From Phycisphaerae bacterium (GTDB lineage Bacteria > Planctomycetota > Phycisphaerae > WQYP01), in NCBI GenBank assembly GCA_035504095.1, contig DATJSN010000045.1, positions 591 to 64,590 of the forward strand: a stretch of 64,000 nt of DNA. The letters run 5' to 3'. The notes below the pieces were generated by a model. It saw only the letters and a program-made list of their open reading frames with translations. It was not told the origin of the DNA and made no database searches. Positions 1,527 through 63,056 of this stretch are shown piece after piece. Position numbers and translations under genes: made by a program. How positions within the stretch are numbered: position 1 is the stretch's first letter; the number at the start of each line of letters is the position of its first letter.

Positions 1527-3662
1527 CTATCCAACTTCATGGAACTGGTTTTCAAAAAGCTGCCGGTAGGTTTCACAAGAATCCAACAATTGGGCGTGCG
1601 TCCCTATGCCCACTATTTGCCCGGCTTCCAGGCAAACAATCATGTCCGCTGAAACAACGGTGCTGAGGCGATGGGCAATTACAAACGTCGTTCGATCTTT
1701 CACAAATTCTTTAAGCGCCAGAGAAATTTTGAATTCACTCTCCGAATCGATTTGACTGAGCGCTTCATCAAGAATCAAAATTGCCGGATCGCGCAAAATG
1801 GCGCGGGCAATGGCGATCCGTTGCCGCTGGCCGCCGGAAAGCCGTATGCCCGACTGGCCCACCATGGTCTCGTATCCTTTTGCCATGTTGACAATGAATT
1901 CGTCCGAGAAGCTGCGCCGGCTGGCATCGAGCACCTGTTCGCGGCTGCAGTGCCGGCTGCCATAGGCAATGTTGTTATAGATGGTATCAGCGAAAAGTAT
2001 CGTTTCCTGCGTCACAAGGCCGATTTGTTTGCGCAGCGAACGCAGCGACACGCCGGCGGTATCCACGCCGTCGATCAAAATCCTGCCCCGTGTCGGTATA
2101 TACAAACGCGGTAAAAGTGAAAGAAGCGTGGTTTTTCCCGAACCATTGCCCCCCACGATGGCCACTGTCTGGCCGTGTTCCACGTTCAAGTTTAAATTAT
2201 GCAATACTTCCTGTTCATGGCCGGGATAGGTAAAACTAAGATGTTCAAACCGAATGGATTCTTTGTGCCGAGGCAATTGCGGCAGCTGATGCGAATAGTT
2301 TGGCTCCGGCTCCATATCGATGACTTCGAAAATGCGGCTTGCTGCGGCGTTGGCGCGCTGGATGGTGGTGTTGACATCCGAGAGTTTTCGGAACGGTTCA
2401 AGAAACGCCAGAAAGCATCCGCCCAGCATGAAAAATGTTTCCCGGTCGACTTTGTTGTTCACCACTAAATATGCCGCAATCATCAACGGAATGCTGACCA
2501 GAATGATGGAAAGCGTTTCCACGACCGGTTTGGAAGCGGCCGCATAATGCCCAAGTTTGGCCTGTTGCAGATAAAGACGGCGATTGGACCGGGTGAAGCG
2601 TCGGCGTTCATAACCTTCACCCGAGTAAGCTTTCACTATGCGCAAGCCGACCAGCGTCTCGTTGATAATGCCCAGCATGCCGGCCCACTCTTCAAGTCCG
2701 CGACGGCTGGCCCGGCGCATGCGATGGGAAAATTTATAAACCGGTATGGCGATAAATGGCAGACATGCCGCCATTCCCAGACATAGCTTCCAATCCAAAA
2801 AAAGAGCAAAAATGGCGACGAAGACAGCCTTTGCCGGCTCCAGAATCATTTTGCCTGTAAGCGTACTCAGACCGTCGGTAAGGATATTAGTGTCCTGCGT
2901 GAGCCGACTGGCCAGATCGGATGTGCCTTTTTCAGAAAAATAAGATGCGGGAAGCTGTACGATCCGGTCATACATGCTTCGTCGGATGTCAATGACCACT
3001 CGTGAACTGGTAGTGACAGTCAGATACTGTTGAAAATAACGGAAGATGCTGCCAATGATGCAAAGAAAAATAAACAGGATCAATATCCACAAAAGGCTTT
3101 GAAATGGTGGTTTTGGCAGGAGATTCACCAGCGCTATAAATTCTCGCACGTACCAGTGTGTGCCCGGCAGCGTCAAATTGATTGCTGGTAATGCCCCACC
3201 ATGGCTGGATGTGACCATCAGCCGAATGGCGGATCCCTGCGGACCGCCGGCCAACAGAGCCATCATATCGAACCATGAATCGCTCTGGCTTGTTATTTTT
3301 CCGGTTGCGTCCAGCACCTGAACACGCGTAATTCGGTCGCCTTGTTGCAGGGATTGCAGCTGAACGGGAGTATTTGTGGTCGTGGCGCCGATGACAAGGG
3401 CTAAATTAGCGTTTTGTCCGGAGGCCGTTTTCTCAACGGAAACGTCCAGGTTCTGAATATTCAGGTGCAGACGCTGTTCAACTGCGATTTGATTAACCCA
3501 CCCGTGGACGCCCTCATCGCTGAGGAATATTTTCATTACTGGAAACAGGGTGGCGATGCCCGAAGCATAACTTAGGCTTACGCCTAGCACACAAAGCAAA
3601 CTCACAACGATACGCCAGCGATACGGCCAGACGCCTTTAAGTGCTCGCCATAAATCTTTCAT
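1527..3662 (-). CDS. ABC transporter permease/ATP-binding protein (MsbA-like exporter) with a ~150 aa periplasmic, PDZ-like insert after TM1.
   Basis: 711 aa. Walker A GGNGSGKTT, ABC signature LSGGQRQR, Walker B ILILDEA. Six TM helices follow an extra N-terminal TM plus a soluble segment (QQGDRITRVQVLDATGKI). Confidence 0.9.
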   Translation of the reverse strand: MKDLWRALKGVWPYRWRIVVSLLCVLGVSLSYASGIATLFPVMKIFLSDEGVHGWVNQIAVEQRLHLNIQNLDVSVEKTASGQNANLALVIGATTTNTPVQLQSLQQGDRITRVQVLDATGKITSQSDSWFDMMALLAGGPQGSAIRLMVTSSHGGALPAINLTLPGTHWYVREFIALVNLLPKPPFQSLLWILILFIFLCIIGSIFRYFQQYLTVTTSSRVVIDIRRSMYDRIVQLPASYFSEKGTSDLASRLTQDTNILTDGLSTLTGKMILEPAKAVFVAIFALFLDWKLCLGMAACLPFIAIPVYKFSHRMRRASRRGLEEWAGMLGIINETLVGLRIVKAYSGEGYERRRFTRSNRRLYLQQAKLGHYAAASKPVVETLSIILVSIPLMIAAYLVVNNKVDRETFFMLGGCFLAFLEPFRKLSDVNTTIQRANAAASRIFEVIDMEPEPNYSHQLPQLPRHKESIRFEHLSFTYPGHEQEVLHNLNLNVEHGQTVAIVGGNGSGKTTLLSLLPRLYIPTRGRILIDGVDTAGVSLRSLRKQIGLVTQETILFADTIYNNIAYGSRHCSREQVLDASRRSFSDEFIVNMAKGYETMVGQSGIRLSGGQRQRIAIARAILRDPAILILDEALSQIDSESEFKISLALKEFVKDRTTFVIAHRLSTVVSADMIVCLEAGQIVGIGTHAQLLDSCETYRQLFENQFHEVG

Positions 3663-3738
3663 ACAACCTCATGAGCCTGCCGTAATTCCAAACCCGCGAT
3701 TGTAACATGTTTCGATGTCGGTGGCACGGTGAACAACA

Positions 3739-6807: not shown

Positions 6808-7110
6808 TTTCCGCCGCTGATGGGTTGATTATCGTAATTCTGTAGGCAGGGTTAACGTTTGGTTTACAAAATATTTACGCAGCGCCTGTGCCAAACGAGA
6901 ACCGCTGCAGAAAAAAGGAATCGGATTTTTACACTACATTAACTGAGCGGCCTGCCCGCCGTTTGCGGTTGAGCATCTGCCGGCCTTTTTTGGATTTCAT
7001 ACGGGCGCGAAAACCGATTTTCCTGACACGCTTACGATTGCTGACCTTGTGGGGATAATGCACGCTAAAACTCCAATACAACCTTTTTGAATTTTAATCT
7101 CAATTGGTAC

Positions 7111-9324
7111 TTATTGCACCTTCACCAGCACGGAGGCATACGCGTTATTACCCTGGTCATCCGTAGCCAGGATCACTACGCGATGCGACCCGGGGTCCAG
7201 AGCTTTCGTAATGGCGCTGAAGCCCTCCAGCGGCGAGTCGAAAATAGTATCCGATGCCGCCGCAGGCTGCCAGTTTGTCGCGGAATCGATTTGGAAGCTT
7301 ACCTGAGTAACCGGCGAGAGTTTATCGCTCGCGATGCCGGTAATCTCTACCTGTCTTCCAGGTAGAGCCTTCCACTGCAGATTGGCGATAGTAGGCGGTG
7401 TATTATTGACCAGGAACCATTGGGTTTGACGGGCCACTTCAAAAGCATTTTGCGGTGGATTGTCCGGTGCATCCGAAGCGATCACCCTTACCTGATAATA
7501 ACCGTCGGGAAGCCCCGTCGTGTCCCAGGAATATTGAGTATCGGACAAATCTTTGGCAATCGAAATCCATACCGGGATACCCTGCTGTTGATAAGAGAGT
7601 TTGTATGCCAGTGTATCGTTATTCGCATCCGAAGCCTCCCACTGGATCGTGAGCTGGTGAGGCGAGTCGGATTGTGGTTGCACCTGCACGCTGGAAATCT
7701 CCGGTGGTACATTGATCTGTTGATAGGAAATTCGCCCAAGATGAACCACCGGAGTTTGCCCGTTTTTATCCGCCTGCAGTGTCAGACGAAACTGCAAATA
7801 CCGTGCGGTGGGGCTGGAAATTTTGCGATATTCATTGGCCGGCATCGGAGCGGACCATGCGCTCCAAAATTTGCCCAGGGTATCCACGTCCGGCAAATTT
7901 CCGCTGCGTGTTTGAATTTCAACATCGGCTCCTTCAGGAATGTCGGCGTCAATATGCGCTGCGCCCCAGTTAGCCGGCAATTGGGCATCCAACACTTTAC
8001 TGGTGTACGTGCCGCCGTCTACCGTTCCTGAAGAGAGTTCATAAACCTGTCCCTGATTGGCGGTTCCCAGATAAAGTTGTCCGTCGGGACCCAAGGTCAT
8101 GCAAAGGATATTCGCTTCGTTCAACCGTGCGATCAGTGATCGTGTCTGTGTGGCGGGCGTAAAAAACAATAATCGTCCATGATCACTAAGTCCCAGCATC
8201 AGTACGCCCTGATTGTAGAGCATCGAAAGAATCATGTCCGGAACATGCAGTAAAGTCGTAATCCTTCCCGCTGGTGTAATTTCGTAAACAGCGTTGGTCT
8301 GCGATGACTGCCCCTGTTCGTCTTGGTCCGACTGCGGCTGTGTTGAATTCGCATCATCGCTGGCGTCGCCCTGATCATCTGCGGGGTTTAAATCGTCCTG
8401 GTCATCAGCGGCATCCTGACCCTGTCCGTCGCCGGAAACGGCGCCGCCAGTTACATTCAACGTTGCGGGTTGACCGCCTGTGTGACTCTGTGGTTGAAAT
8501 AAACCACCGCTTCCCTGGGCAAGTCCTGGTGAAGCTGTAGCTGCAAAAACATTACCAGCGGCATCGGCAGCCAATGAGGATATTTCGGCATGGTCGGCGG
8601 ACATCAAAACAAACGATTCTCCGCTGGAAGCATTGACGCGAATCACCAGTCCCGGGCCATCGGTGCCGGCATACAGATTGCCATCCAGCCCAACGACCAG
8701 AGACGTAATGTTGTGTACATCCGCGCTAAAAATTTCTTTTGACGTTCCCTGTGGATCAACCCTCCAGATCTGGCCGTGTGGTCCGGTCGCCAGATAAATG
8801 GACCCGTCCGCACCTTGTTCAATCGCCCATATATATTCAACGGATGCCTGTTGAAAAAGAGTCGTTGTCGTGACCTTACCGCCAACATTGGAGAGGCGAA
8901 TAAGCTGGGCGGAGGACCCGCAAGTGCCTGCGAGCAGGGCTCCATCTTTATCCATGGCCAGGCTTAAAATGTCTGTCTGTCCTGCCGGAGGTTGGTAATA
9001 TGCGCTGGTTTGCCCACCGGAAATTTTATATATTTTTCCATTGGGTGATGTGCCGAAATAAATGCTGCCGTCCGGGGCCGCTGCGATGGCGCTAATCATG
9101 GTGAACATCGTGTGGTTTAGCAGAGGTTTAAGTTCCCGGCTTAACTGTAACTCACCAAGATTATTCACCACGGTATTGTGAAAGCTTCCATCGGCATACG
9201 AAGATTCTGTATTAAATTCCCAGTTTTGAGCTTCCACCGCCCAGGCAATCGGAGTCGCAATCAGCAGAACGGCTCCGATCGCAACCAAGATGTTTACCGT
9301 CCGATAAATTTTTTCTGCCAACAT
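7111..9324 (-). CDS. Large secreted/anchored protein: repeated beta-propeller-type blades, an acidic D/Q-rich low-complexity linker and a C-terminal Ig/Fn3-like region.
   Basis: 737 aa with an N-terminal signal-anchor. Repeated DGSIY(F/L)GT...G(Q/K)I(Y/W) blades occur about 6 times. Low-complexity segment DDQDDLNPADDQGDASDD. Confidence 0.8.
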   Translation of the reverse strand: MLAEKIYRTVNILVAIGAVLLIATPIAWAVEAQNWEFNTESSYADGSFHNTVVNNLGELQLSRELKPLLNHTMFTMISAIAAAPDGSIYFGTSPNGKIYKISGGQTSAYYQPPAGQTDILSLAMDKDGALLAGTCGSSAQLIRLSNVGGKVTTTTLFQQASVEYIWAIEQGADGSIYLATGPHGQIWRVDPQGTSKEIFSADVHNITSLVVGLDGNLYAGTDGPGLVIRVNASSGESFVLMSADHAEISSLAADAAGNVFAATASPGLAQGSGGLFQPQSHTGGQPATLNVTGGAVSGDGQGQDAADDQDDLNPADDQGDASDDANSTQPQSDQDEQGQSSQTNAVYEITPAGRITTLLHVPDMILSMLYNQGVLMLGLSDHGRLLFFTPATQTRSLIARLNEANILCMTLGPDGQLYLGTANQGQVYELSSGTVDGGTYTSKVLDAQLPANWGAAHIDADIPEGADVEIQTRSGNLPDVDTLGKFWSAWSAPMPANEYRKISSPTARYLQFRLTLQADKNGQTPVVHLGRISYQQINVPPEISSVQVQPQSDSPHQLTIQWEASDANNDTLAYKLSYQQQGIPVWISIAKDLSDTQYSWDTTGLPDGYYQVRVIASDAPDNPPQNAFEVARQTQWFLVNNTPPTIANLQWKALPGRQVEITGIASDKLSPVTQVSFQIDSATNWQPAAASDTIFDSPLEGFSAITKALDPGSHRVVILATDDQGNNAYASVLVKVQ

Positions 9325-9355
9325 TTGTTCTCCAGAATATTTGTTTTAAAGCCAA

Positions 9356-11404
9356 TTAATTTTCTTCGGCTCCGGAATCATCGGAACTGCCCGGCGGCGG
9401 TGGTGATGCCGGTTCCGGCGACGGCGGTTGTGCGAAACGCTCATCAGCATGGAGGCGAACCTGAATATGAAACTCACGCTGGCCGCCGTCCTGTACCACA
9501 GCACCAGCGTCCACGCTCGTTACAGCCTGATTATAAATAGGATACACATCGCCGCTTTGGTAGGCTGCCAGAAGTTCCATGCGGCTCGCCGGCAGATTTT
9601 CCATAGCCTGCTGCCCCTGTTGAATGCCCTGGACGTTAAGTATCAAACGGGCATAAACGCGATCCTGGCGGTAGGCCAAAAGACGCCTGATGTCTGTCTT
9701 TAAAGATTCAATGTCGGTTGGATTAAAATACTGAGGAAAATAATTGGCTTCCTGTTGTACTGATTCCCCCGCCGATCCCACAACCAGATCATAATCACCA
9801 TCGGGCGTATCCCGGGGAATCACGAGTTTCATATCAACTGGTGTTACCGGCATATCCGTTGCTTTAAGTTGTACCTGTATGTGAACACTGTCGCCCGGCG
9901 CCACTATTGTTCGATCCACCGCCGCTGAAAGTATCTGGGCGCCATGATCAACAGTGCTTTGCTGAATATTCAGATTGACGCTTTGAAGGTCCAGATTATC
10001 AAAAGGATTATTGGTCAGCAGCGACACTGGAAGCAGAGTAGAAGTCGGATCAAAGTCTCCGGTTTGCTTATCCTGGTCCATACCGGTGGATGCCTGCTGG
10101 TTAATCTCATATATCTGGCCGCCGGCCTTGATCTGACCCGTGATGGACAAGGTGTAATTGGTTGTTTTGCTGACCAGCGTGCGACGTGCCGTCATCGAAC
10201 CTAAGATCGCCCCGGCAAGTGCATCCATGGTGGAATTCGGCCCGGGATAAAGTTGATAGTGAAAAACACGATCCTGATCCGGATCAAAATTTTGGACGGT
10301 AATGGTCACGGGAACTGAGGCTCCCGTTTCTCCTAAGGCACCAACGATTCCCGTCGCATTGTCCATAACCAACTGTCCCTGCGGCATAAAACTTGTACCC
10401 ATTTTGAACGATTCATCGTATCCTGGAATAATTGTATAAATATATGTCGTTTCTATCGGTAAATTATTCGGTCCCTGGGCGAAAAATTCGTGACCAAATG
10501 CATAAACATGATCACCGACCACGTCTGTCACCGTGCCGATTGCCGACATATCCACGTCACCTGTGAGAAGGGGAACCGCAATTCCGGAACCGGGCTCCAA
10601 ATGCACCACCGACGGTCTTATCTGGGTCATTCCGCCGAGATATTCGTCGCCGCCCGATGCGGAACCGGCAGCCAGCGGCACCAGACCTTCATCGGCTAAT
10701 GTCCGCTGCAGGTAATGAAGCACTGTCGGGGAAGCCCCACTGACCATCAGCGGAGATGCCAGTGCCATCAATCCCAGACGCCGTTCATTTTCACTTTGGG
10801 TTTGGGAATCCTGGTTATTCATTCCCGAATTGCACTTAAATACATTAGCAACCAGGTTCGACCAGCCTGAAAGTTGTGCAGTCATGGCCGTCCATTCCAC
10901 TTGAGATGGGCTTTGCGCCGCTAAATTCGCCGGCGCAGCAGGATTGGGCAACGGAATACCGAGCATCTGGCGTATCGGCTGAACACCCGCAATGGGATCC
11001 TTGGAAAAACCCCAACCGTAGGCAATTGCTCCAATCAATTTGCCATCAATGTAACATGGTGATCCACTCATGCCGGCGATAATCCCCGAATGTTCGAGGC
11101 CCAGACCGCTGCAGCGCACCAGAATGACATTCATGTCCGGTTGAAAATTTTTGATTACATCAATCACCTTGAATTCAAATTTGTCTATTGTCACCCCGTG
11201 CATCACGGTTAAACCGTAACCGGTCATTCCCGGAAAAATGTCATTTTCAAACAGGCATTGATTCGCCGCCTGAGTTAAAGCCGTTGATTGAGCGGCGGGC
11301 AAAGTCTGGCCGAATACCGATGGCTGGCAAAAAACGAGCGCCCCCGCCAAAGCCGCCGTCATGTTCAAAACATACCGTTTAATATCGCGTTGCGCCATTT
11401 TCAT
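9356..11404 (-). CDS. Secreted putative serine peptidase (trypsin-fold, S55/SpoIVB-like GxSGSP motif). The track ORF extends to 11530; the preferred start is the ATG at 11404, giving an N-terminal signal peptide.
   Basis: GMSGSPCYIDGKLIGAIAYGW resembles the catalytic-serine motif of trypsin-fold peptidases. MKMAQRDIKRYVLNMTAALAGALVF reads as a signal peptide. Confidence 0.7.
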   Translation of the reverse strand: MKMAQRDIKRYVLNMTAALAGALVFCQPSVFGQTLPAAQSTALTQAANQCLFENDIFPGMTGYGLTVMHGVTIDKFEFKVIDVIKNFQPDMNVILVRCSGLGLEHSGIIAGMSGSPCYIDGKLIGAIAYGWGFSKDPIAGVQPIRQMLGIPLPNPAAPANLAAQSPSQVEWTAMTAQLSGWSNLVANVFKCNSGMNNQDSQTQSENERRLGLMALASPLMVSGASPTVLHYLQRTLADEGLVPLAAGSASGGDEYLGGMTQIRPSVVHLEPGSGIAVPLLTGDVDMSAIGTVTDVVGDHVYAFGHEFFAQGPNNLPIETTYIYTIIPGYDESFKMGTSFMPQGQLVMDNATGIVGALGETGASVPVTITVQNFDPDQDRVFHYQLYPGPNSTMDALAGAILGSMTARRTLVSKTTNYTLSITGQIKAGGQIYEINQQASTGMDQDKQTGDFDPTSTLLPVSLLTNNPFDNLDLQSVNLNIQQSTVDHGAQILSAAVDRTIVAPGDSVHIQVQLKATDMPVTPVDMKLVIPRDTPDGDYDLVVGSAGESVQQEANYFPQYFNPTDIESLKTDIRRLLAYRQDRVYARLILNVQGIQQGQQAMENLPASRMELLAAYQSGDVYPIYNQAVTSVDAGAVVQDGGQREFHIQVRLHADERFAQPPSPEPASPPPPGSSDDSGAEEN

Positions 11405-11563
11405 AGAACCTAATACGATTGCCCGCACATCAGAGTTTATAGTCAAATCGCTCAACCTCAAACGATCCGGTACTATGCTCTGTGGGCAATTGGTTGTAAA
11501 GTATAACGCCATGGCCGGCTGTTGACTCAAAGGCGGTTTTCACAGCAAAAAGTTCTTTAACTT

Positions 11564-12871
11564 TTGAGCATCCAAATTGACATGAATAAGAACGTTCTGG
11601 TGACAGATTCACCTGATCAGGCTGATAAACTCGCGTCCGTTTCCGGATCTTTAACAAATTTTCCCAAAATAAGCTTTGCCGCGATTATTCCCGTCTATAA
11701 CCATTCCGAGAGTGTGGGCGCCGTTATCAGAAATGTACTGCACCGCTTCCCGTTTCTGCCCATCTTTGTTATCGACGATGGCAGCACCGACGGCACGGGT
11801 CTTATTCTGGATAAACTTGCACAAGAAATAAATGACCTTACGGCATCCGATCATCCCCATATTCGTGTGATCCATCATTCAACCAACCAGGGCAAAGGAG
11901 CCGCACTTCTTACCGGTTTTCAGACCGCGACTGAGGCTACTCATGCGGTAACAATCGACGCCGATGGCCAGCATTGCATTAATGACGTTTTTCGATTGCT
12001 CGAAATCGCGCGCATGTTCCCCGATGACCTGATCATCGGCGACCGGCAAATGGATTCCTGTGATGTTCCTGTCGCTTCCCGGCGTGGTCGGGACATATCT
12101 CGATTTTGGCTGTGGGCGCAAACCGGACAGGACGTTCCAGACAGCCAGTGTGGTTTGAGGGTTTATCCTATTGCTCAGACACTACAGTTGAAACATATTT
12201 TTCAACGCTATGATTTTGAAACAGAAACGCTTATTCGTCATGCCTGGTCTGGTTTGCGTATTCGCTCTGTTCCTGTCACGTGCATTTATTTTCCCCACGC
12301 GGAGCGCATATCGCACTTTCGTCCTTTTCGCGATACGGTGCGGGGCGTCCGGATCAACGTCATACTGACCACATGGCAAATCATTTATCCCCTTGGCCAC
12401 AAACGTCATCAATCACTTTTTTTTCCTTCGCCGCCCGGCAAGTCATATAATTTCCGCCAAACACTTGGAAAATTATTTCTCTCTGATCTTCGCGATTCTC
12501 AGATTTCAGCCGCCGTTGGCGTAGGGATATTAATTGGTTTTATTCCGGTGTACGGTTTTCAGACGCTTCTTGCGTTCTATGTAGCGCGGAAAATTCATTT
12601 AAATACTCTTATTACCATGCTTTTCGCACAAATTTCCACCCCGCCGCTGATGATGTTCAGCGTTGCCCTGAGCATTAACATGGGTGAACTGCTTGTGCAT
12701 GGCCGACTTTCAGATGCGCCTTTTGGCACATTAAATTCCTGGCACTGGGCATTCTATAACTATGGTTTTTCTTTAATTATCGGCGGATTGATTTGCGGCA
12801 TCCTCGCCGGCGCGACAGCGTTACTATTGACGCGCACTTTGATCAAGGTTATTCGAAATTTATCTACATAA
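11564..12871 (+). CDS. Glycosyltransferase family 2 fused to a C-terminal DUF2062-type membrane domain
   Basis: N-terminal GT2 signature (IIPVYNHSESV...VIDDGSTDGT; DxD region TIDADGQH). The C-terminal ~150 aa is polytopic membrane (DUF2062-like). Confidence 0.85.
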   Translation: MSIQIDMNKNVLVTDSPDQADKLASVSGSLTNFPKISFAAIIPVYNHSESVGAVIRNVLHRFPFLPIFVIDDGSTDGTGLILDKLAQEINDLTASDHPHIRVIHHSTNQGKGAALLTGFQTATEATHAVTIDADGQHCINDVFRLLEIARMFPDDLIIGDRQMDSCDVPVASRRGRDISRFWLWAQTGQDVPDSQCGLRVYPIAQTLQLKHIFQRYDFETETLIRHAWSGLRIRSVPVTCIYFPHAERISHFRPFRDTVRGVRINVILTTWQIIYPLGHKRHQSLFFPSPPGKSYNFRQTLGKLFLSDLRDSQISAAVGVGILIGFIPVYGFQTLLAFYVARKIHLNTLITMLFAQISTPPLMMFSVALSINMGELLVHGRLSDAPFGTLNSWHWAFYNYGFSLIIGGLICGILAGATALLLTRTLIKVIRNLST

Positions 12872-12879
12872 ATTACGGC

Positions 12880-13671
12880 TTAGCAGTAAACATGGAAATT
12901 CAGTGCTTCTTGGAGTGAAATGCAGCGCAATCCCCGATCTTTCATGGTTTTGAGTATCTCAGGGAGCGCATTTACTGTCTGCGCTTGTGAGCAATGCGAA
13001 CGGGAAGGTTCCAACCCGTCGTGCATGGTTACAATATCGCCGCCGCGGGCGTTTTCCCCAATGTGTTTCACAACTGATTCAAATCCTACGTTCATGGTAT
13101 CCCACGCCCGCAATCGCCAGGCGACGTACTTCGCCCCATTGATTGCCACGGCTTTAGCTTGATGTGGTGTTTTAAACCCCATTGGGGCACGGAATAACAT
13201 TGGCCGAACACCTGCGGCTTCTTCAATTGCCGCGCTGGTTTTTTCCACCTGACCGACCCAGTAAGCCAGCGAACCCATAATGCCATGGTGATGATGATCC
13301 CATGTGTGATTGCCGATGGTGTGCCCTTCATCAACCATTCGTCTGAGCAATTTCTTATTCGCTTCCACATGCCGTCCGATTACAAAAAAGCTGGCATGCG
13401 ATTTATGATCTGCCAGAATATCCAATATCTGACTGGTAAATGGTTCTGTCGGCCCGTCGTCGAAGCTAAATGCTATAGCATCATTCTGATCGATGGTCCG
13501 TATGACCGGCGCAAAAAAACCGCTGCCGGAATAAAAAACCGACCATCCAATCCGCGCTGCCAGACCAAACCCAACAACAGAAGCCGCGGCTGCTGTGGCG
13601 CCGATTGGATATTGCTCGATAAAACTCTGAATACCGTCCATGCACCGTTGGTTTGAAAACACAGATTCCAA
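12880..13671 (-). CDS. Polysaccharide deacetylase (NodB homology domain) with N-terminal TM
   Basis: FSFDDGP, HTWDHH and FRAPMG motifs typical of carbohydrate esterase family 4. Confidence 0.85.
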   Translation of the reverse strand: MESVFSNQRCMDGIQSFIEQYPIGATAAAASVVGFGLAARIGWSVFYSGSGFFAPVIRTIDQNDAIAFSFDDGPTEPFTSQILDILADHKSHASFFVIGRHVEANKKLLRRMVDEGHTIGNHTWDHHHHGIMGSLAYWVGQVEKTSAAIEEAAGVRPMLFRAPMGFKTPHQAKAVAINGAKYVAWRLRAWDTMNVGFESVVKHIGENARGGDIVTMHDGLEPSRSHCSQAQTVNALPEILKTMKDRGLRCISLQEALNFHVYC

Positions 13672-21534: not shown

Positions 21535-21593
21535 GTAAGAGCCTCTAACCAAATTTGATGCGGATTCAGGCTCATTTTGGTTAGATGCTCTCA
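21535..21593. repeat. Mini inverted-repeat hairpin element sharing its arms with the terminal inverted repeats of the 59477-59762 element
   Basis: GTAAGAGCCTCTAACCAAAT ...(20 nt)... ATTTTGGTTAGATGCTCT: about 17 bp arms with one mismatch, lying between trpS (5' leader on the minus strand) and ptsI. Confidence 0.6.
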
Positions 21594-21702: not shown

Positions 21703-23460
21703 ATGGAAATTAAAAAAGGCATCGGTGTTTCCTCAGGGGTCACGGTAGCTCCCGCCTTGGTTCTTAGCGATGACGAACTTCGCATCGGACGTCGCTCGAT
21801 TACTGAATCTGAAATTCCCGCCGAACGCAAACGCCTTCTCGCCGCCATCACCGCCGGCAGCGATGATATTCGCGATCTGCGGGACAGTACCTCGCGAAAC
21901 CTGGGCAAAGAAACCGGCGCCATCTTCGATTTTCACCTGGGTCTGCTTAACGACACTCAGCTTATGCACACCATTACCCAGGGTATTGAACAGAGTCATT
22001 TCACCGCCGAGTTTGCCGTCCATCGTGCCTTGCGCGACTATGGCAAAAACTTTCTGGAACATCCGGATGCCTATTTTCGTGAGCGTATCAAGGATATATA
22101 CGACATCGAAAAACGTCTTCTGCAAAAGCTCATGGGACGGGAAAAAATCCGGCTCAGCGACGTCACCGGACCGGTGGTGATTATCGCCCGCGATCTGACC
22201 CCCTCACAAACCGCCTCGCTAAACAAGGATCTGGTTAAGGGAATCGCCATTGAGGCCGGTGGACAGACCAGCCACACCGCGATCATCGCCAATTCCATGG
22301 GAATTCCCGCCGTCGTGGGCTTGGAAAACATGGCCCATGAAATTACCTCCGGCGACATGCTGATCATCAACGGCTACAGCGGTTTGGTGATCATTGATCC
22401 TGATGAGGCCACCATCGCTGAACACAAGTTGTACGAAAAACGCCAGATTAAGTATGAAACTTCGCTCAATTCCATGCGTGATTTGCCCGCGCGTACCAAG
22501 AACGGCGTGGAAATTGAACTTATGGGCAATATCGAATTCCCGCATGAAGTCGACAACGCCCTGGACAAGGGCGCCATAGGAATCGGGCTATATCGAACTG
22601 AATTTCTCTATCTGGCCAGCGACCGTGAACCGACGGAAAGTGATCATTACGCCGCCTATGCCGAAGTTGCCCGTAGATTAGCGGGAAAACCCGTCGTTAT
22701 TCGCACTCTGGATCTCGGCGCGGATAAATACTCACCATTTCAGGATCAAATTCAGGAAGCCAACCCATTTCTCGGTTGCCGTTCTATTCGCCTGTGCCTG
22801 GCTAACATTCGCATGTTCAAAACTCAATTGCGTGCGATCTTGCGCGCCAGCGTACTGGGTGATGTTCGGATGATGTTTCCGATGATTACCACGCCCATGG
22901 AGCTTCGTCAGGCCAAAATGGTCCTTAAAGACACCATGGAAGAGCTCGAAGAAGAAGGCATCCAATACAACCGGCACATGAAAACGGGCATGATGGTTGA
23001 AGTTCCATCTACCGCCATGGTTCCGCAATTGTTCGTGCGCGAGTGCGATTTTCTATCCATCGGCACCAACGACCTGATCCAATATACGCTCGCTGTTGAT
23101 CGTGGAAATCAACGGGTCGCACCGCTTTACAGTGCCGCCAACCCCGCCGTGATTAAATTGATCCAGAATGTCGCTCGCTCGGGAAAACGAGCTGATCGCA
23201 GCGTTTCCCTGTGCGGAGAAATGGGCGGCGATCCCGAATTCACCATTTTGCTGGTGGGTCTGGGTCTGCGCACGCTTTCCATTGCGCCGCACAATATTCC
23301 CCAGGTGAAAAAAGTGATCCGCAGTATTCATACCGACCACGCGGAAAACATCGCGCGTCGCGTCATGAGCTTTGAAAATTCTCAACAAATTATGAATTTT
23401 CTGCGCGAAGAAACTCGCAAGGTCCTTCCTGACATCTTTCGCGAAGATCCTGGACATTAA
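21703..23460 (+). CDS. ptsI: Phosphoenolpyruvate--protein phosphotransferase (PTS Enzyme I). The start is placed at the ATG at 21703 (MEIKKGIGVSSG); the track ORF starts at 21577.
   Basis: GGQTSHTAIIANSMGIPAVVG phospho-histidine region and the C-terminal PEP-utilising TIM-barrel motifs (RTEFLY, NDLIQY). Confidence 0.9.
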   Translation: MEIKKGIGVSSGVTVAPALVLSDDELRIGRRSITESEIPAERKRLLAAITAGSDDIRDLRDSTSRNLGKETGAIFDFHLGLLNDTQLMHTITQGIEQSHFTAEFAVHRALRDYGKNFLEHPDAYFRERIKDIYDIEKRLLQKLMGREKIRLSDVTGPVVIIARDLTPSQTASLNKDLVKGIAIEAGGQTSHTAIIANSMGIPAVVGLENMAHEITSGDMLIINGYSGLVIIDPDEATIAEHKLYEKRQIKYETSLNSMRDLPARTKNGVEIELMGNIEFPHEVDNALDKGAIGIGLYRTEFLYLASDREPTESDHYAAYAEVARRLAGKPVVIRTLDLGADKYSPFQDQIQEANPFLGCRSIRLCLANIRMFKTQLRAILRASVLGDVRMMFPMITTPMELRQAKMVLKDTMEELEEEGIQYNRHMKTGMMVEVPSTAMVPQLFVRECDFLSIGTNDLIQYTLAVDRGNQRVAPLYSAANPAVIKLIQNVARSGKRADRSVSLCGEMGGDPEFTILLVGLGLRTLSIAPHNIPQVKKVIRSIHTDHAENIARRVMSFENSQQIMNFLREETRKVLPDIFREDPGH

Positions 23461-23509
23461 CGAAACGCTTTTTTTGCCAGAGACTCTCTATTTCGTTTAA
23501 GATTGCTCT

Positions 23510-23788
23510 AGAATCTATCTCAAACCATAGCGAGAGCCGCGTTTGGCATCAAAGTGGTCAGATGCAAGGAAGAGCGACGAGGTTATATTCGAAAGATAAT
23601 ATGGTGAGGAGTGTTGACGCCGCAGATGGCCGCTTGGAGGCCAAACCCTTCGGGACGAGGCTGCCTGACCCCGAATCCGGCGTCGCACCTTCTCGCTGTA
23701 TTGTATTTTAATACTCGCTCGTCGATGCTCCTTGGCTCGGAGCCAGGCAGCCGACGTCGCGGCCTCGATATGTTTTGAGATAGATTCT
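23510..23788. repeat. Copy A of a ~280 bp structured inverted-repeat element (candidate ncRNA or MITE-like), bounded by 15 bp terminal inverted repeats AGAATCTATCTCAAA / TTTGAGATAGATTCT.
   Basis: The core aligns with 59500-59740 in shared blocks: GAGCCGCGTT(T/G)GGC, CAGATGCAAGG, CGCCGCAGATGG, CCCTTCGGGACG, GGCGTCGC, CTCGCTGTATTGTATT(T/C)TAATAC, TCGTCGA(T/A)GCTCCTTG, CAGC(C)GTCGCGGCC. A sub-hairpin shows compensatory changes (ATATT-cgaaagat-AATAT versus GTATC-cgaaggat-GATAC). It ends 2 nt before the ATG at 23790. Confidence 0.7.
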
Positions 23789-23789
23789 T

Positions 23790-24314
23790 ATGCCCAAAGA
23801 AACACTGTCTCCCCGAATACGGCACATTTTGCTTTTGAGTACAATGATTGTCCTCGGGTTGCTGGCTTTAGTATTTGCCGACTTGGTAATGCACTGGCGC
23901 GCGAAAGTTGACCGGATAGCATTTACGCCGCCTAGTCACGACTTTGTTCCCACCCAATCCAGTGTACTACTACTTAACGGCCGGTCACGATTAATCGACC
24001 GCTTCAGTATTTCATTAAATGGCGGCTTCTCTAATGATCCGCAGTCCTTAATTAATGAACTTTTTGGCCAGGTTCTTTCCGATGTATCGAGCGACCTTAA
24101 CAAGACTGGATCCCCGGAAGTTTCCTTATCGAATAACGGTCCATTTTATACTTATAAAGCTTTTTGGCCCAATAATCAGGGCTTCCTTTTCATGAACTTT
24201 TTGGTCAGTTCTGGTGAGCTTGAGGCCATCAGTTATTTTGGAATGGGCGAGAGTTTTCCACAGGACGATCAGTATTTTCAGGCGCTGTCTGTTAAAATAT
24301 TCTCCGGAGACTAA
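23790..24314 (+). CDS. Hypothetical membrane protein
   Basis: 174 aa with an N-terminal TM (ILLLSTMIVLGLLALVFADLVM). The start codon abuts the right terminal inverted repeat of element A. Confidence 0.6.
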   Translation: MPKETLSPRIRHILLLSTMIVLGLLALVFADLVMHWRAKVDRIAFTPPSHDFVPTQSSVLLLNGRSRLIDRFSISLNGGFSNDPQSLINELFGQVLSDVSSDLNKTGSPEVSLSNNGPFYTYKAFWPNNQGFLFMNFLVSSGELEAISYFGMGESFPQDDQYFQALSVKIFSGD

Positions 24315-40463: not shown

Positions 40464-40491
40464 TCCTTCCCGATTAATTTTGTTAGAGGCT

Positions 40492-41535
40492 CTAGCCGAC
40501 AGAATTCGTGACTTGATTCAGCATAGTTACCCAATGACCGGCCCAATGGGCAATCGAATAATTTTCTATCACATGCCGACGACCGGCGTTTCCATACGAT
40601 GAACGAAGACTTTCATCTTCGGTGAGCCGTCGAATGGCCAGACGCCACTCTTCTGGACCTGTTGCCCAATAACCATTAACACCATCAACAACGATTTGAC
40701 GATTCACACCCACGGGGGTCGCAATTACCGGAAGACCGGCAGCCATGTACTGCAATAATTTAGCGCCGCATTTAGCGGCTTGGTAGGGATTATTTTCCAG
40801 CGGCATAATTCCCACGTCAATGTGCATGGAGATCGTGCGCTCCAGTGTTGGTGACCAATTTAAATAGCGCACCCAACGTGAGTCCTTCATGAATGAGGCG
40901 GGCCGATCTGAAATGACCACCAGTTCGAATTTCAATTCCTGCTGCAATTCGTGAAAAACTTTCGCCATGGGTGCCAGGGTGTGCTCTATCGACATTGAAC
41001 TTCCAAGCCAGCCGATGCGCAATGGCCCATTTAATCGATGGTTTTCACGCACACTGTAACAATCGGTATCAACGGCTGTAGGAATGATGACGTGCTTGCG
41101 AGTAACGCTCGAAATGGCATCCGCAATGGATTGATTTCCACAGATGATAACATCGGCCCGACGACATAGTGCTTCAAAACCAGTGCGATCGCCACCGAGA
41201 TAAATTGCATCATCGACGTCCAATATAAGTGGATTGGGTGCATTCAAAAATGGGCGCTTGCTTACAGGCAACTCACGACTAATCACAATTGGTTGATGTG
41301 GACCAAGTTTATGAAGCGCGGACGAAGCTTGCAGAGTACGCCATCCCCGCCGTAAACGATGTCCGGTGCGGCCGAACCACTTTGTCTTTGGCAAACTCGA
41401 CTGACCTATTCCGGAATCAAAATGATGTATTCGTAGTCGCCAGCCGCTTTTCTCCAGGTGCGGAGCATAAGCCGCAATCCTCATCCTGGACGAAGGATGG
41501 TTGACGCCCAGAGAAAACGCCAGAACATTTTTCAC
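40492..41535 (-). CDS. Glycosyltransferase family 4 (GT-B, GT1 clan)
   Basis: C-terminal E-x7-E-like region, with AAKCGAKLLQYMAAGLPVIATPVG typical of GT4. Confidence 0.85.
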   Translation of the reverse strand: MKNVLAFSLGVNHPSSRMRIAAYAPHLEKSGWRLRIHHFDSGIGQSSLPKTKWFGRTGHRLRRGWRTLQASSALHKLGPHQPIVISRELPVSKRPFLNAPNPLILDVDDAIYLGGDRTGFEALCRRADVIICGNQSIADAISSVTRKHVIIPTAVDTDCYSVRENHRLNGPLRIGWLGSSMSIEHTLAPMAKVFHELQQELKFELVVISDRPASFMKDSRWVRYLNWSPTLERTISMHIDVGIMPLENNPYQAAKCGAKLLQYMAAGLPVIATPVGVNRQIVVDGVNGYWATGPEEWRLAIRRLTEDESLRSSYGNAGRRHVIENYSIAHWAGHWVTMLNQVTNSVG

Positions 41536-54610: not shown

Positions 54611-54774
54611 GTATATTCCTTAAACCATTAGCCCACCTATATAACGCCGAATAGGCAATCTTATTATTGTACTTTTAGCCTTTCTACTTTTAAATTATTA
54701 CTCCAATCCGGTCCCTTGGACTCGCCCAGGCCTATTCGTATAATCTGCTCTGGTTTTTTTGTTAGAGGTTCTAG

Positions 54775-55229: not shown

Positions 55230-55301
55230 GCGGGCGTAACTCAATGGCAGAGTGCCAGCCTTCCAAGCTGGCTGTTGTGGGTTCGAGTCCCATCGCCCGC
55301 T
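55230..55301 (+). tRNA. tRNA-Gly (anticodon UCC)
   Basis: Manual fold: acceptor GCGGGCG/CGCCCGC, D-arm ACTC-AATGGCA-GAGT, anticodon stem CCAGC/GCTGG with loop CTTCCAA, T-arm GTGGG-TTCGAGT-CCCAT, discriminator T; 72 nt. Confidence 0.9.
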
Positions 55302-57126: not shown

Positions 57127-59475
57127 TCACGCAGCCACAAACGAAACCGCCCATTGCACTTCCCGACTTACCGGAGATTCAATTGTCACCCGCGTCCAGA
57201 AGCCGGCTTCCGCGTGCGAAATTTTTACGCCCGCTGCCGTATCCGCCGATGAAACAACGACTGAAGCAACTGGCGCGCTGGCCTGACCGTTTTTCGTTAA
57301 AACTACTAACTCGGGCGCCGGTTGTGAAATGCGCAATTCATAAGCCGATCCGCCTACTACTTTGCTGGTTCCGCTGAGCGTGTTAGTTTCCGGATTCCAT
57401 TGTTCACTCACCAGGTCGACCGCCCCCTGTGTGACGTGACGGGACGTGCTGATCAGTTGCGGATTCTTTGTCCGTGGCCTAATCGCCATTACCAGACACG
57501 TTCGCCCCGGCAGATCAAATGTCCAGCTATTTAAACCGCTGATCGGTTTATTGCCCCAGAAATCAAAAGCGTCATAGACTGCGTTAGGGTCCAACCCCGC
57601 CGCTGCTGGATCAACTTGTGCCGTCCAGTGTCCGCTGCTCCAGTTGAACAAACCCAGAACGTAATGGACCTCATCGTCGACTTTATAAGTTAACATCCAA
57701 ATCCGCGCCGGATCATTATCAAACAGGTCCACTGGGCGGACCGTTTTGAATTGATGCGAAGGCATCATGCAGCGCAGTGCGTCGATGCGTTCCTGCGTGT
57801 ATTCCAGCATCCAGTCACTGGTAGTGTGATGGGCGCTAAGCAACGTCACCCATGAGCCATAACACAAAAACTCGTTCATCGGAACCGAAAGTCGGGCGTA
57901 AATCGGATCAGGATCGTTCCACCATACGCGCCCGTTAAGAAAATACAGATGCGAACCGGCGTGTGTTCCATGCTGAATATTGGCCCATTTGGATGTGTTG
58001 TCCGGCCCGATGCGCATCGCGTCGACCAACCCCAGCTCCATGCCCAGCGAACGCTCATTTTGAGGCAAACAACACCCGAGGATAAATGTATCTGGTCCGG
58101 CGGCCTCACGAATTGTCTTAAGTCCCAGCCGTGCCGCCTGCATATTGGACATGGTTTTGTCCTTGAATACCGCGTCGCCGAAGTTGTCCTCGTAATAAGC
58201 TTGATTCGCAATTTGATGAGAATAATCCTGCAGACATGCCAACCCTGTATATTGGCCGTCGATTTTCAGATAACCATACCCCCACTTATTCATCGCCTGA
58301 CTGATAAACCCTGCGACATAATCCCGTGCTTTACTGTACGTCATGTCCAGGCATGTGCCGCCCCAATAAGTGTCATATACCGAACCATCTTCCCGGCGAA
58401 CCACCAGGTCCAGCTTGTCTGCGAATATTGGATCCTGATAATCAATCGCGAACGGCAGCATCCATATTCCCGGCAGCAGTCCCAGCGCCGCGATCTTATC
58501 CGCCACCGGTTTCATGCCCGCCGCATACGGCCCTTTGGGATTCACATGATAAAAATCCATCGCCGGCCAGCCGTTGCGCTTCTGGCCGTTTTGCCAGTGA
58601 TCGTCAATTTGCACAAAACTGAACCCAAACGGGGCAAAATTTTTGGCGGCATATTCAGCGATTTGCTGCAGATGTTCCGGATCGGAAGCGGCGCCATGTT
58701 TATCCGAATACCACGTGCAATATCCCGGAGCATGTGGCTTAAGTTTGACCCCGTTAATCAAGGCAAACTGATCTGCCCAGGTTTCCAGGCCATCGCGTAC
58801 ATCGTCAAACCAGCCGATCGCCCACCAGTCCCCGCCGAATTCATCCAATGTAGGCGGAATCGCACTGCCGTAATCGTTACGCAATTTTAGTACAATTTTG
58901 CCGCCTTCCACTCTTGGAAATATCACGCCGCTGGCGGCGTCTATTCTGATCAGACCCGCCACTACGCCGCTTCGTGAGACTGGATCGGCGACTGTTGTTA
59001 CCACGTGTTGGCCCGGATTGTTCGCCGGATCATAAAGTCCGCCTGCCCCTAGTCCTTTGGTCGACGCCTCAAGACTTAATTTCGCCTCAAATACGCTCAC
59101 CCGATGTCCCGGCATGATCACGTCGGAGTTGCGCGGATCGCGGCGAATAAAAACAAACGGAACATCCTGGGCAATAACAATCCAGTTTTCTCCCGGCGAA
59201 ATTTTCAACACTTTTCCCGGACCAAATGGCGAATCCGCGCCCAGATCAACGATGCTGCACGACCCTGCTCCGGGCTGCATAAACAACCCCGATGCGAATG
59301 GACTTAAATCGGCAGCCAATGTCAGCATGCCCGTGGTCGTATCCATGCCGGCAAATACTTTGCCGTTGCTGATGATGCTCACCGGTGAATCAGTCTGTGC
59401 GTAAAGTTTGGCAGGAATGCTCGCCGCCCCCGCCGATACCAGCAAGGTTCCTACAAATTCGCGACGTGTGAACAT
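57127..59475 (-). CDS. Tat-secreted putative glycoside hydrolase (TIM-barrel, alpha-galactosidase-like). The start is the ATG at 59475 (MFTRREFVGTLLVSAGAAS); the track ORF extends to 59646 through repeat element B.
   Basis: Twin-arginine signal RREFV. The internal WGYGYLKIDGQ resembles the catalytic KxD region of clan GH-D enzymes. The family assignment is tentative. Confidence 0.7.
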   Translation of the reverse strand: MFTRREFVGTLLVSAGAASIPAKLYAQTDSPVSIISNGKVFAGMDTTTGMLTLAADLSPFASGLFMQPGAGSCSIVDLGADSPFGPGKVLKISPGENWIVIAQDVPFVFIRRDPRNSDVIMPGHRVSVFEAKLSLEASTKGLGAGGLYDPANNPGQHVVTTVADPVSRSGVVAGLIRIDAASGVIFPRVEGGKIVLKLRNDYGSAIPPTLDEFGGDWWAIGWFDDVRDGLETWADQFALINGVKLKPHAPGYCTWYSDKHGAASDPEHLQQIAEYAAKNFAPFGFSFVQIDDHWQNGQKRNGWPAMDFYHVNPKGPYAAGMKPVADKIAALGLLPGIWMLPFAIDYQDPIFADKLDLVVRREDGSVYDTYWGGTCLDMTYSKARDYVAGFISQAMNKWGYGYLKIDGQYTGLACLQDYSHQIANQAYYEDNFGDAVFKDKTMSNMQAARLGLKTIREAAGPDTFILGCCLPQNERSLGMELGLVDAMRIGPDNTSKWANIQHGTHAGSHLYFLNGRVWWNDPDPIYARLSVPMNEFLCYGSWVTLLSAHHTTSDWMLEYTQERIDALRCMMPSHQFKTVRPVDLFDNDPARIWMLTYKVDDEVHYVLGLFNWSSGHWTAQVDPAAAGLDPNAVYDAFDFWGNKPISGLNSWTFDLPGRTCLVMAIRPRTKNPQLISTSRHVTQGAVDLVSEQWNPETNTLSGTSKVVGGSAYELRISQPAPELVVLTKNGQASAPVASVVVSSADTAAGVKISHAEAGFWTRVTIESPVSREVQWAVSFVAA

Positions 59476-59476
59476 A

Positions 59477-59762
59477 GTAAGAGCCTCTAACAACATAAGC
59501 CGGGAGCCGCGTTGGGCCGCAAATGGCCCAGATGCAAGGCGGAGGCCCGAAGCCGTATCCGAAGGATGATACAACGAGGGCCGACAACGCCGCAGATGGG
59601 CCATTTGCGACCCAACCCTTCGGGACGCGGTGCCTTTCGGCCCCATACGGCGTCGCTTCTCCTCGCTGTATTGTATTCTAATACTTGCATCGTCGAAGCT
59701 CCTTGTCTGGGACCCAAATGCCCAGCGTCGCGGCCCCGCCTTATGTTGTTAAAGGCTCTAAC
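59477..59762. repeat. Copy B of the ~280 bp structured inverted-repeat element, with 22-23 bp terminal inverted repeats GTAAGAGCCTCTAACAACATAAG / CTTATGTTGTTAAAGGCTCTAAC.
   Basis: The core aligns with copy A (23525-23770). Its terminal stems have a different sequence from copy A but are self-complementary in both copies. It begins 1 nt from the ATG (59475) of the minus-strand hydrolase gene. Confidence 0.7.
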
Positions 59763-59853
59763 CCTCCTCGTGGACCGCCATTTAAATAAAACTTACCATT
59801 CATCATCTGCCGCTGCCAGTGATTTAATGGCGTTATTCCAGTAACATAACGTC

Positions 59854-62620: not shown

Positions 62621-63056
62621 GTTCTACAATGCTCGGGCCAAAAGCCTAAGCTACTAATGCATTCTTCTCAATCATTTAAAAATCTAGCTCAGACTCCCCA
62701 GCATGAGCATGTGACCGTAAGATTCACAGTTAATAAACGGTGGGTCCGCATGCTCACTAAACGCATTCGTCGACAATGCTGCATAAAGCAAAAATCTGTT
62801 TGACAAAACAAAAATATTAGCTATTATGATAATTGAAATATACCTATCCAAAAGGGCGATGGAGTTCGCCCTAACCGCCCCATGTCCATGGGGCTGATAA
62901 CTCCTATCGGGCTTTACCCAATGGAAATATGTCAGCGCATTCGTGCTGGATTTCCTGCCCGTAGGGTTTTCAGTCGTAGCATTCCGGATAAGCAACTCGC
63001 GGATATTCTTCTCCGCGGATTCGCTTCTCTTAGGATGCTGAACATGGCGTGGCAAC

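Follow-up and report, generated by a model that had tools for sequence, protein, structure and literature searches.

The ~280-bp element that occurs twice in the window (the whole 64-kb stretch of Phycisphaerae DNA analyzed here) is a MITE: it is mobile and non-autonomous, and it generates a 3-bp staggered target duplication. The two copies, A and B, are members of two subfamilies of one MITE family, which is common in Phycisphaerae bacteria. A sequence-only reading of the window had described "a structured ncRNA or MITE" and favored an RNA closing helix. The element is indeed strongly structured, but its outer stem consists of transposon terminal inverted repeats. Taken as a whole, the best explanation, which we hold to be very probable, is that of a ~280-bp Phycisphaerae MITE moved in trans by a DDE transposase, with a fold that would aid tolerance of insertion at start sites. 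Two features make the family unusual: compensatory change has kept the interior fold in different subfamilies, and insertions frequently fall between a ribosome-binding site and its start codon.

Copies in the Window

Copies A and B lie at the places reported by the sequence-only reading, both on the + strand, and share 81% mean column identity over 322 aligned columns. A profile built from the pair finds these two as the only full copies in the 64-kb window (E about 1e-92). The profile also matches the reverse strand of each copy end to end (E = 1e-18 and 4e-16), and the element is thus a large imperfect palindrome. The CCCTTCGGG mini-hairpin and the GTATT..AATAC hairpin, both pointed out previously, are present in either copy. 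In total, the window harbors two full copies, one mini-element, and two solo repeats (Table 1).

Both copies are intergenic, and their neighbors are unrelated housekeeping genes (ptsI, a class I tRNA synthetase, a glycoside hydrolase, and an acyltransferase). Downstream of copy A lies a 174-aa ORF (23790-24314), the ATG of which overlaps the right flank of the element. The minus-strand gene at 57127-59475 has its start codon 2 nt to the left of the left TAA of copy B, and the protein encoded beside copy B is identical to an NCBI protein of a Phycisphaerae MAG (P0002); the window is itself a contig of an ENA metagenome. Across the family, copies measure 275-294 bp. The ORFs that overlap them are all short and unconserved, and no transposase gene is found inside.

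Table 1. Coordinates of MITE copies, derivatives, and associated sites in the window
Feature	Position	Strand	Remarks
52-bp mini-derivative	21539..21590	+	Short loop between two terminal repeats; flanked by TAA/TCA; ptsI lies downstream
Copy A, left 3-nt flank CTA	23508..23510	.	One base off the right flank TTA
Copy A, A-type MITE, 277 bp	23511..23787	+	Sequence, alignment, profile match
Copy A, terminal repeats	about 23511-23534 and 23764-23787
Copy A, left arm	23541-23646
Copy A, CCTTCGG mini-hairpin	23647-23653
Copy A, right arm	23654-23758
Copy A, right 3-nt flank TTA	23788..23790	.	Final A is the first base of ATG 23790
Solo right terminal repeat TTTTGTTAGAGGCTC	40478..40492	+	Followed by TAG
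Solo right terminal repeat, one mismatch	54755..54771	+	Followed by TAG, then ATG 54775 of a 134-aa ORF
Copy B, target-site duplication, left copy TAA	59478..59480	.
Copy B, B-type MITE, 278 bp	59481..59758	+	Y-shaped interior as in copy A
Copy B, terminal repeats	about 59481-59505 and 59734-59758
Copy B, target-site duplication, right copy TAA	59759..59761	.
Probable native Shine-Dalgarno, GAGGAGGG	59762..59769	-	Belongs to minus-strand gene 57127-59475; copy B now lies between Shine-Dalgarno and ATG

A Family of Two Main Types

A three-motif pattern scan recovers about 40 true copies among 59 metagenome loci, in addition to those of a Phycisphaerales MAG. In metagenome Ga0335074, more than 25 contigs carry copies, with many each of the A and B types. 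The motifs CAGATGC, GCAGATGG, and CCTTCGGGA were required by the scan, which in part accounts for their being invariant in the alignment, and their conservation is thereby overstated. A scan of the genome collection with two core motifs returned mostly chance matches; the true ones are confined to L012, L017, and L026, corresponding to a Phycisphaerales MAG with two full-length homologues and to a contig of another MAG with a short variant. Among viral contigs, the core pattern has 0 matches, and a 14-mer of the repeat gave chance single matches only.

Rfam 15 at the gathering score contains no match to either copy or to nine other loci, and raising the limit to E = 10 for both copies and nine related loci yields only noise (e.g., mir-81 at 16 bits). 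The element is therefore undescribed in Rfam, in keeping with the earlier remark that it matched no RNA recognized from sequence alone. A literature search for MITEs of Planctomycetes or Phycisphaerae returned no description of such a family. It thus seems undescribed and would be the first well-defined MITE of Phycisphaerae/Planctomycetota.

On L026 (2409-2966 and 3070-3257), the short variant, which comprises the left arm only, adjoins six tRNA genes in an array. That contig was assigned to the bin of a betaproteobacterium, Paludibacterium, which may reflect mis-binning or horizontal transfer. The sequence of the variant recurs in the metagenome locus L076. On L063, the stretch 3054-3690 holds three of these elements, as copies or fragments, nested or abutting within 640 bp.

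Terminal Repeats, Target Duplication, and Mobility

Terminal inverted repeats of 22-35 bp are found in 37 copies, and their sequence is common within each subfamily. They are typically ~25 bp long and start with G(A/G)(G/A)NC-T-N-T (e.g., GAGCCTCTAAC). The outermost AGAGCC is common even to distant subfamilies. The sequence-only reading had considered the ends of copies A and B to be entirely different and each perfectly self-complementary. Instead, alignment shows them to be diverged homologues (A: AGAATCTATCTCAAA; B: AGAGCCTCTAACAA), and those of copy B contain one mismatch. Nor is either version private to its copy: the ends of many others are nearly identical to TAGAATCTATCTCAAAACATAGC (the A version) or to TAGAGCCTCTAACAAAATAAGC (the B version). 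The same reading had named shared terminal repeats together with target-site duplications as the mark of a plain MITE, and both are found: the repeats are the same within each subfamily, and 3-bp target-site duplications accompany them.

For the flanks, the element was bounded by G(A/G)(G/A)NC...G(N)(Y)(Y)C, and the 3 nt immediately outside were compared. These are T-W-A on both sides in most copies. The two flanks are identical in 12 of the 31 usable copies, whereas permutation gives a mean of 5.3 (P = 0.0003). The exceptions are the remaining pairs, copy A (CTA/TTA) among them, while copy B has TAA on either side. In the 11 copies in which both flanks are TTA or TAA, the repeat is direct in every case (11/11) and never inverted, which rules out a simple extension of the stem. 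A 2-bp TA duplication of the IS630/mariner type was also considered and rejected, since the flanks do not fit it.

The same terminal repeats occur in other contexts. They bound deletion derivatives of 188-228 bp, as well as the 52-bp mini-derivative of the window. The mechanically called TTG ORF start at 21577 falls inside this mini-derivative; the called ptsI product of 585 aa points to a start near 21703. On L033, elements of 162 bp (1686-1847) and 143 bp (7038-7180) carry the same terminal repeats and TWA-type flanks around unrelated internal hairpins, and the ends are thus common to several types of cargo. The same contig has phage portal and terminase large-subunit genes close to weak terminal-repeat-like matches (8694-13255), and this stretch resembles a prophage region, within a genome rich in MITEs.

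Evidence for insertion also comes from the site of copy B. The two closest orthologues of the adjoining gene are found at L213 and L214 (81% and 75% protein identity). At both loci the divergent neighbor gene is retained, but the spacers, of 111 and 99 bp, lack the element. At L213, the locus of the 81%-identical orthologue, a solo terminal repeat (TTTTAGAGGCTCTTA, 620-646) is located 2 nt before the ATG. It may have been left behind by an insertion at that site, or an independent insertion may have been followed by deletion. For copy A, the equivalent search returned no homologues of the 174-aa downstream gene besides itself.

The MITE would be moved by a cut-and-paste DDE transposase that acts in trans and makes a 3-bp staggered cut. 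This enzyme is probably of the IS5/PIF-Harbinger kind, an assignment based on the duplication and on a presumed likeness of the repeats. Some IS5-family subgroups (IS1031, ISL2, and IS427) make a 3-bp TWA duplication. A 3-bp duplication is also the canonical footprint of Harbinger, which is related to IS5 (PMC12730594). In ~0.7 Mb of related DNA, no pair of repeats 0.4-3 kb apart encloses a transposase that could represent the autonomous partner. No transposase is found beside the solo repeats either, where the adjoining ORFs are ordinary (glycosidases, a sigma factor, QueG, and phage portal and terminase proteins).

Insertion at Gene Starts

Copies often lie at start codons. An outward-reading, ATG-initiated ORF of at least 100 aa begins 0-8 nt outside the repeat at 14 of 69 evaluable ends, as counted on our own ORF calls rather than on curated genes. 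Of the 34 ORF starts within 200 nt of an end, these 14 fall within 8 nt; for a window of 0-12 nt, the value at random positions is 4%. A Shine-Dalgarno-like motif precedes the duplication copy on the opposite flank at 6 of the 14 start-adjacent ends versus 6 of 54 other ends.

Several insertions separate a native Shine-Dalgarno from its ATG. When the site of copy B is rebuilt without the element, the minus strand reads GAGGAGGG-TTA-CT-ATG. This reconstruction is matched by the GAGGAG-N8-ATG of the orthologue at L214, in which GAGGAG stands 8 nt before the same ATG. The B-type repeat itself brings a GAGG to within 5-8 nt of such start codons; the A-type repeat has no good GAGG. In the window, a solo repeat is found 3 nt before ATG 54775.

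A Conserved Y-Shaped Fold

Both copies fold far more stably than their dinucleotide shuffles (z = -8.7 and -9.8). The fold was analyzed on an alignment of 33 distinct full-length copies, by a helix-level scan in place of an all-pairs covariation listing that proved too noisy. The model that describes the family is a Y comprising the outer stem, a left arm of ~105 nt, the CCUUCGG mini-hairpin, and a right arm of ~105 nt. This model pairs 86.4% of cells, and double-sided change is seen at 74 of its 107 pairs. Control models with slid partners give 26-43 such pairs, and the observed value is reached in 0 of 500 shuffles. The minimum-energy fold is Y-shaped in 29 of the 33 copies. Copy A is somewhat decayed, and its own minimum-energy fold is rod-like.

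A rod, i.e., a single long hairpin, was rejected as the fold of the family. It pairs 77.7% of cells with 48 of 101 pairs compensated, pairing within its internal helices ranges over 35-88%, and no more than 4 of the 33 copies, all of the A type, adopt it at minimum energy. Compensatory changes keep the Y in lineages that propagate, even as individual copies decay, which points to selection acting on the element itself, at or around insertion or during transposition.

The internal hairpins show true compensatory change. In the hairpin that reads ATATT/AATAT in copy A and GTATC/GATAC in copy B, already singled out as compensatory from the two copies, the 33-copy alignment reveals double-sided change at all five pairs. 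The outer stem has to be read differently: its apparent covariation arises from the co-divergence of the left and right transposon ends and thus carries no information on RNA. An apparently novel structured RNA with a covarying closing helix has turned out to be a transposon, and co-diverging transposon ends can mimic RNA covariation, which calls for caution in ncRNA discovery.

Possible Roles of the Fold

The fold and the terminal GAGG would make insertion between a ribosome-binding site and a start codon tolerable. Either strand folds into a closed Y, with the arms joined at the CCUUCGG mini-hairpin. By one route, the repeat would supply a replacement Shine-Dalgarno; by another, closure of the outer stem would return the original Shine-Dalgarno to the vicinity of the AUG. 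That this tolerance is the role of the fold is a tentative proposal. A stronger version, in which the MITE is specialized for the ribosome-binding site as a safe harbor and is harmless in either orientation, appears unlikely. In that version, the closed Y of the transcript would re-juxtapose Shine-Dalgarno and AUG, or the terminal GAGG would serve as a portable ribosome-binding site. If true, it would account for the symmetry of the covariation between strands as well as for the solo repeats kept before start codons. Should the start-site preference hold genome-wide, it would provide a natural system in which translation initiation tolerates or exploits large structured inserts.

Alternatively, the fold may be needed as DNA, with a cruciform or single-stranded form pairing the ends or being recognized by the transposase, and with incidental effects on genes. 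This reading is rather doubtful, although several properties of the fold agree with it. The minus strand folds equally well (z = -9.7), and counts of G-U versus A-C reveal no clear preference for either strand, so that RNA, single-stranded DNA, and cruciform DNA are indistinguishable by this measure. The element has two-fold symmetry, with the same conserved blocks equidistant from each end. Pairs that are kept across the family are also broken in individual copies, by 45 of 74 substitutions at paired positions in the A type and by 37 of 109 such substitutions in the B type, indicating that the structure is maintained in propagating lineages rather than at each locus. Left-arm-only derivatives with intact repeats likewise look mobile (the L026 variant, identical to that of L076, and another at L081). 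On the other hand, derivatives without arms and elements with other cargo keep intact repeats, so that the arms are not strictly needed for mobility, and the clustering at start codons is left unexplained. We know of no DDE transposon of the IS5/Harbinger kind that needs hairpin substrates.

The fold could also be a functionless palindrome that originated by inverted duplication and is kept by arm-to-arm gene conversion or repair, in which case the position at start codons would follow from a preference for AT-rich TWA. The two arms do resemble each other in reverse complement (z = 4-5.7 in five of eight representatives), which makes the element an old inverted duplication of "end plus arm". 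The decay of individual copies is compatible with such an origin, and MITEs in general are highly base-paired (PMC3049150). Nevertheless, this origin is an improbable account of the whole. The basal stems of the arms (17-20 bp) differ wholly in sequence between subfamilies and yet keep their complementarity, in two separate arms. Within the B subfamily, substitutions per column per copy are mildly lower in paired columns (0.044) than in unpaired columns (0.065). Nor is a bare TWA preference likely to bring 14 of 34 nearby ORF starts as close as 8 nt or less to an end.

A family of structured ncRNA genes, with the outer helix as an RNA closing stem and the paralogues expressed as ~250-nt RNAs, would account for the strong compensatory change in all helices, for the extreme folding z-scores, and for the conserved unpaired blocks that alternate with variable stems. 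It is nonetheless highly improbable. Direct 3-bp target duplications flank the copies, and the orthologous loci that lack the element speak against a stand-alone RNA. The same terminal repeats are found alone, in mini-derivatives, and around other cargo, and the co-divergence of the two repeats accounts for the outer-stem "covariation" without any RNA. The gene-facing ends are split about equally (eight left and six right), G-U pairs show no clear strand asymmetry, and single copies decay. A scan of copy B for sigma-70-like promoters and intrinsic terminators revealed none.

Kinship with an integron attC site, a REP/BIME, or an IS200/IS605-derived palindrome with a guide-RNA scaffold can practically be dismissed: the element is an imperfect long hairpin often found just upstream of start codons, and its repeats hold a CTAACAA/TTGTTAG motif that we take to recall attC core sites, but tyrosine recombinases and HUH enzymes do not make terminal inverted repeats with a 3-bp duplication, the neighbors are housekeeping genes in either orientation rather than cassette arrays, and Rfam gives no match to HEARO/omega-RNA or IS605 motifs.

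Comparison with Known Elements

The closest likeness is to IS5-derived and PIF/Harbinger (Tourist-like) MITEs, which are short and non-coding, have terminal inverted repeats and a 3-bp T-W-A duplication, and occur as many dispersed copies with subfamilies and deletion derivatives. Some repeat variants of the present family (GGGCCTGTCTGA...) presumably resemble Tourist/PIF ends as well. In contrast to those MITEs, the interior here is conserved and covaries across subfamilies, rather than the ends alone; the host belongs to the bacterial class Phycisphaerae; and the ~0.7 Mb searched yielded no partner transposase.

The Correia elements of Neisseria affect the expression of neighboring genes; to our knowledge, they have no preference for the spacer between Shine-Dalgarno and ATG. 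They are bacterial MITEs with terminal repeats of ~26 bp that lie close to genes and form hairpins when co-transcribed (PMC3049150). Unlike the element described here, they have a TA duplication, measure 100-156 bp, and lack a two-arm conserved core. For most ERIC/IRU, BOX, and RUP repeats, we are aware of no clear target duplication of the present type and no comparably deep covariation. These repeats are dispersed intergenic imperfect palindromes that are co-transcribed with their neighbors and form stable RNA structures (PMC3049150, PMC3184786). They differ from the present element in taxa, sizes, and ends.

A model for the proposed mechanism, rather than a relative, is offered by split ribosome-binding sites of the phage T4 gene 38 type. 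In these, the effective spacing of Shine-Dalgarno and AUG can be restored by an intervening stem. The T4-type hairpins are about 20 nt long and not mobile, whereas the element here is a 280-nt Y-shaped insert, and the likeness extends to the mechanism only.

Other Features of the Window

An independent assembly of the same organism (L001, a Logan contig of SRR8879135) stops in the right terminal repeat of copy A (contig position 1-26), so that the contig ends 26 nt before the downstream gene. Such a break is as expected for a collapsed multi-copy repeat. The sole tRNA gene of the window encodes tRNA-Gly (anticodon UCC; 55230-55301, + strand). A fluoride riboswitch (crcB motif, RF01734) is located at 62846-62913 on the + strand, with 56.5 bits against a gathering score of 34.
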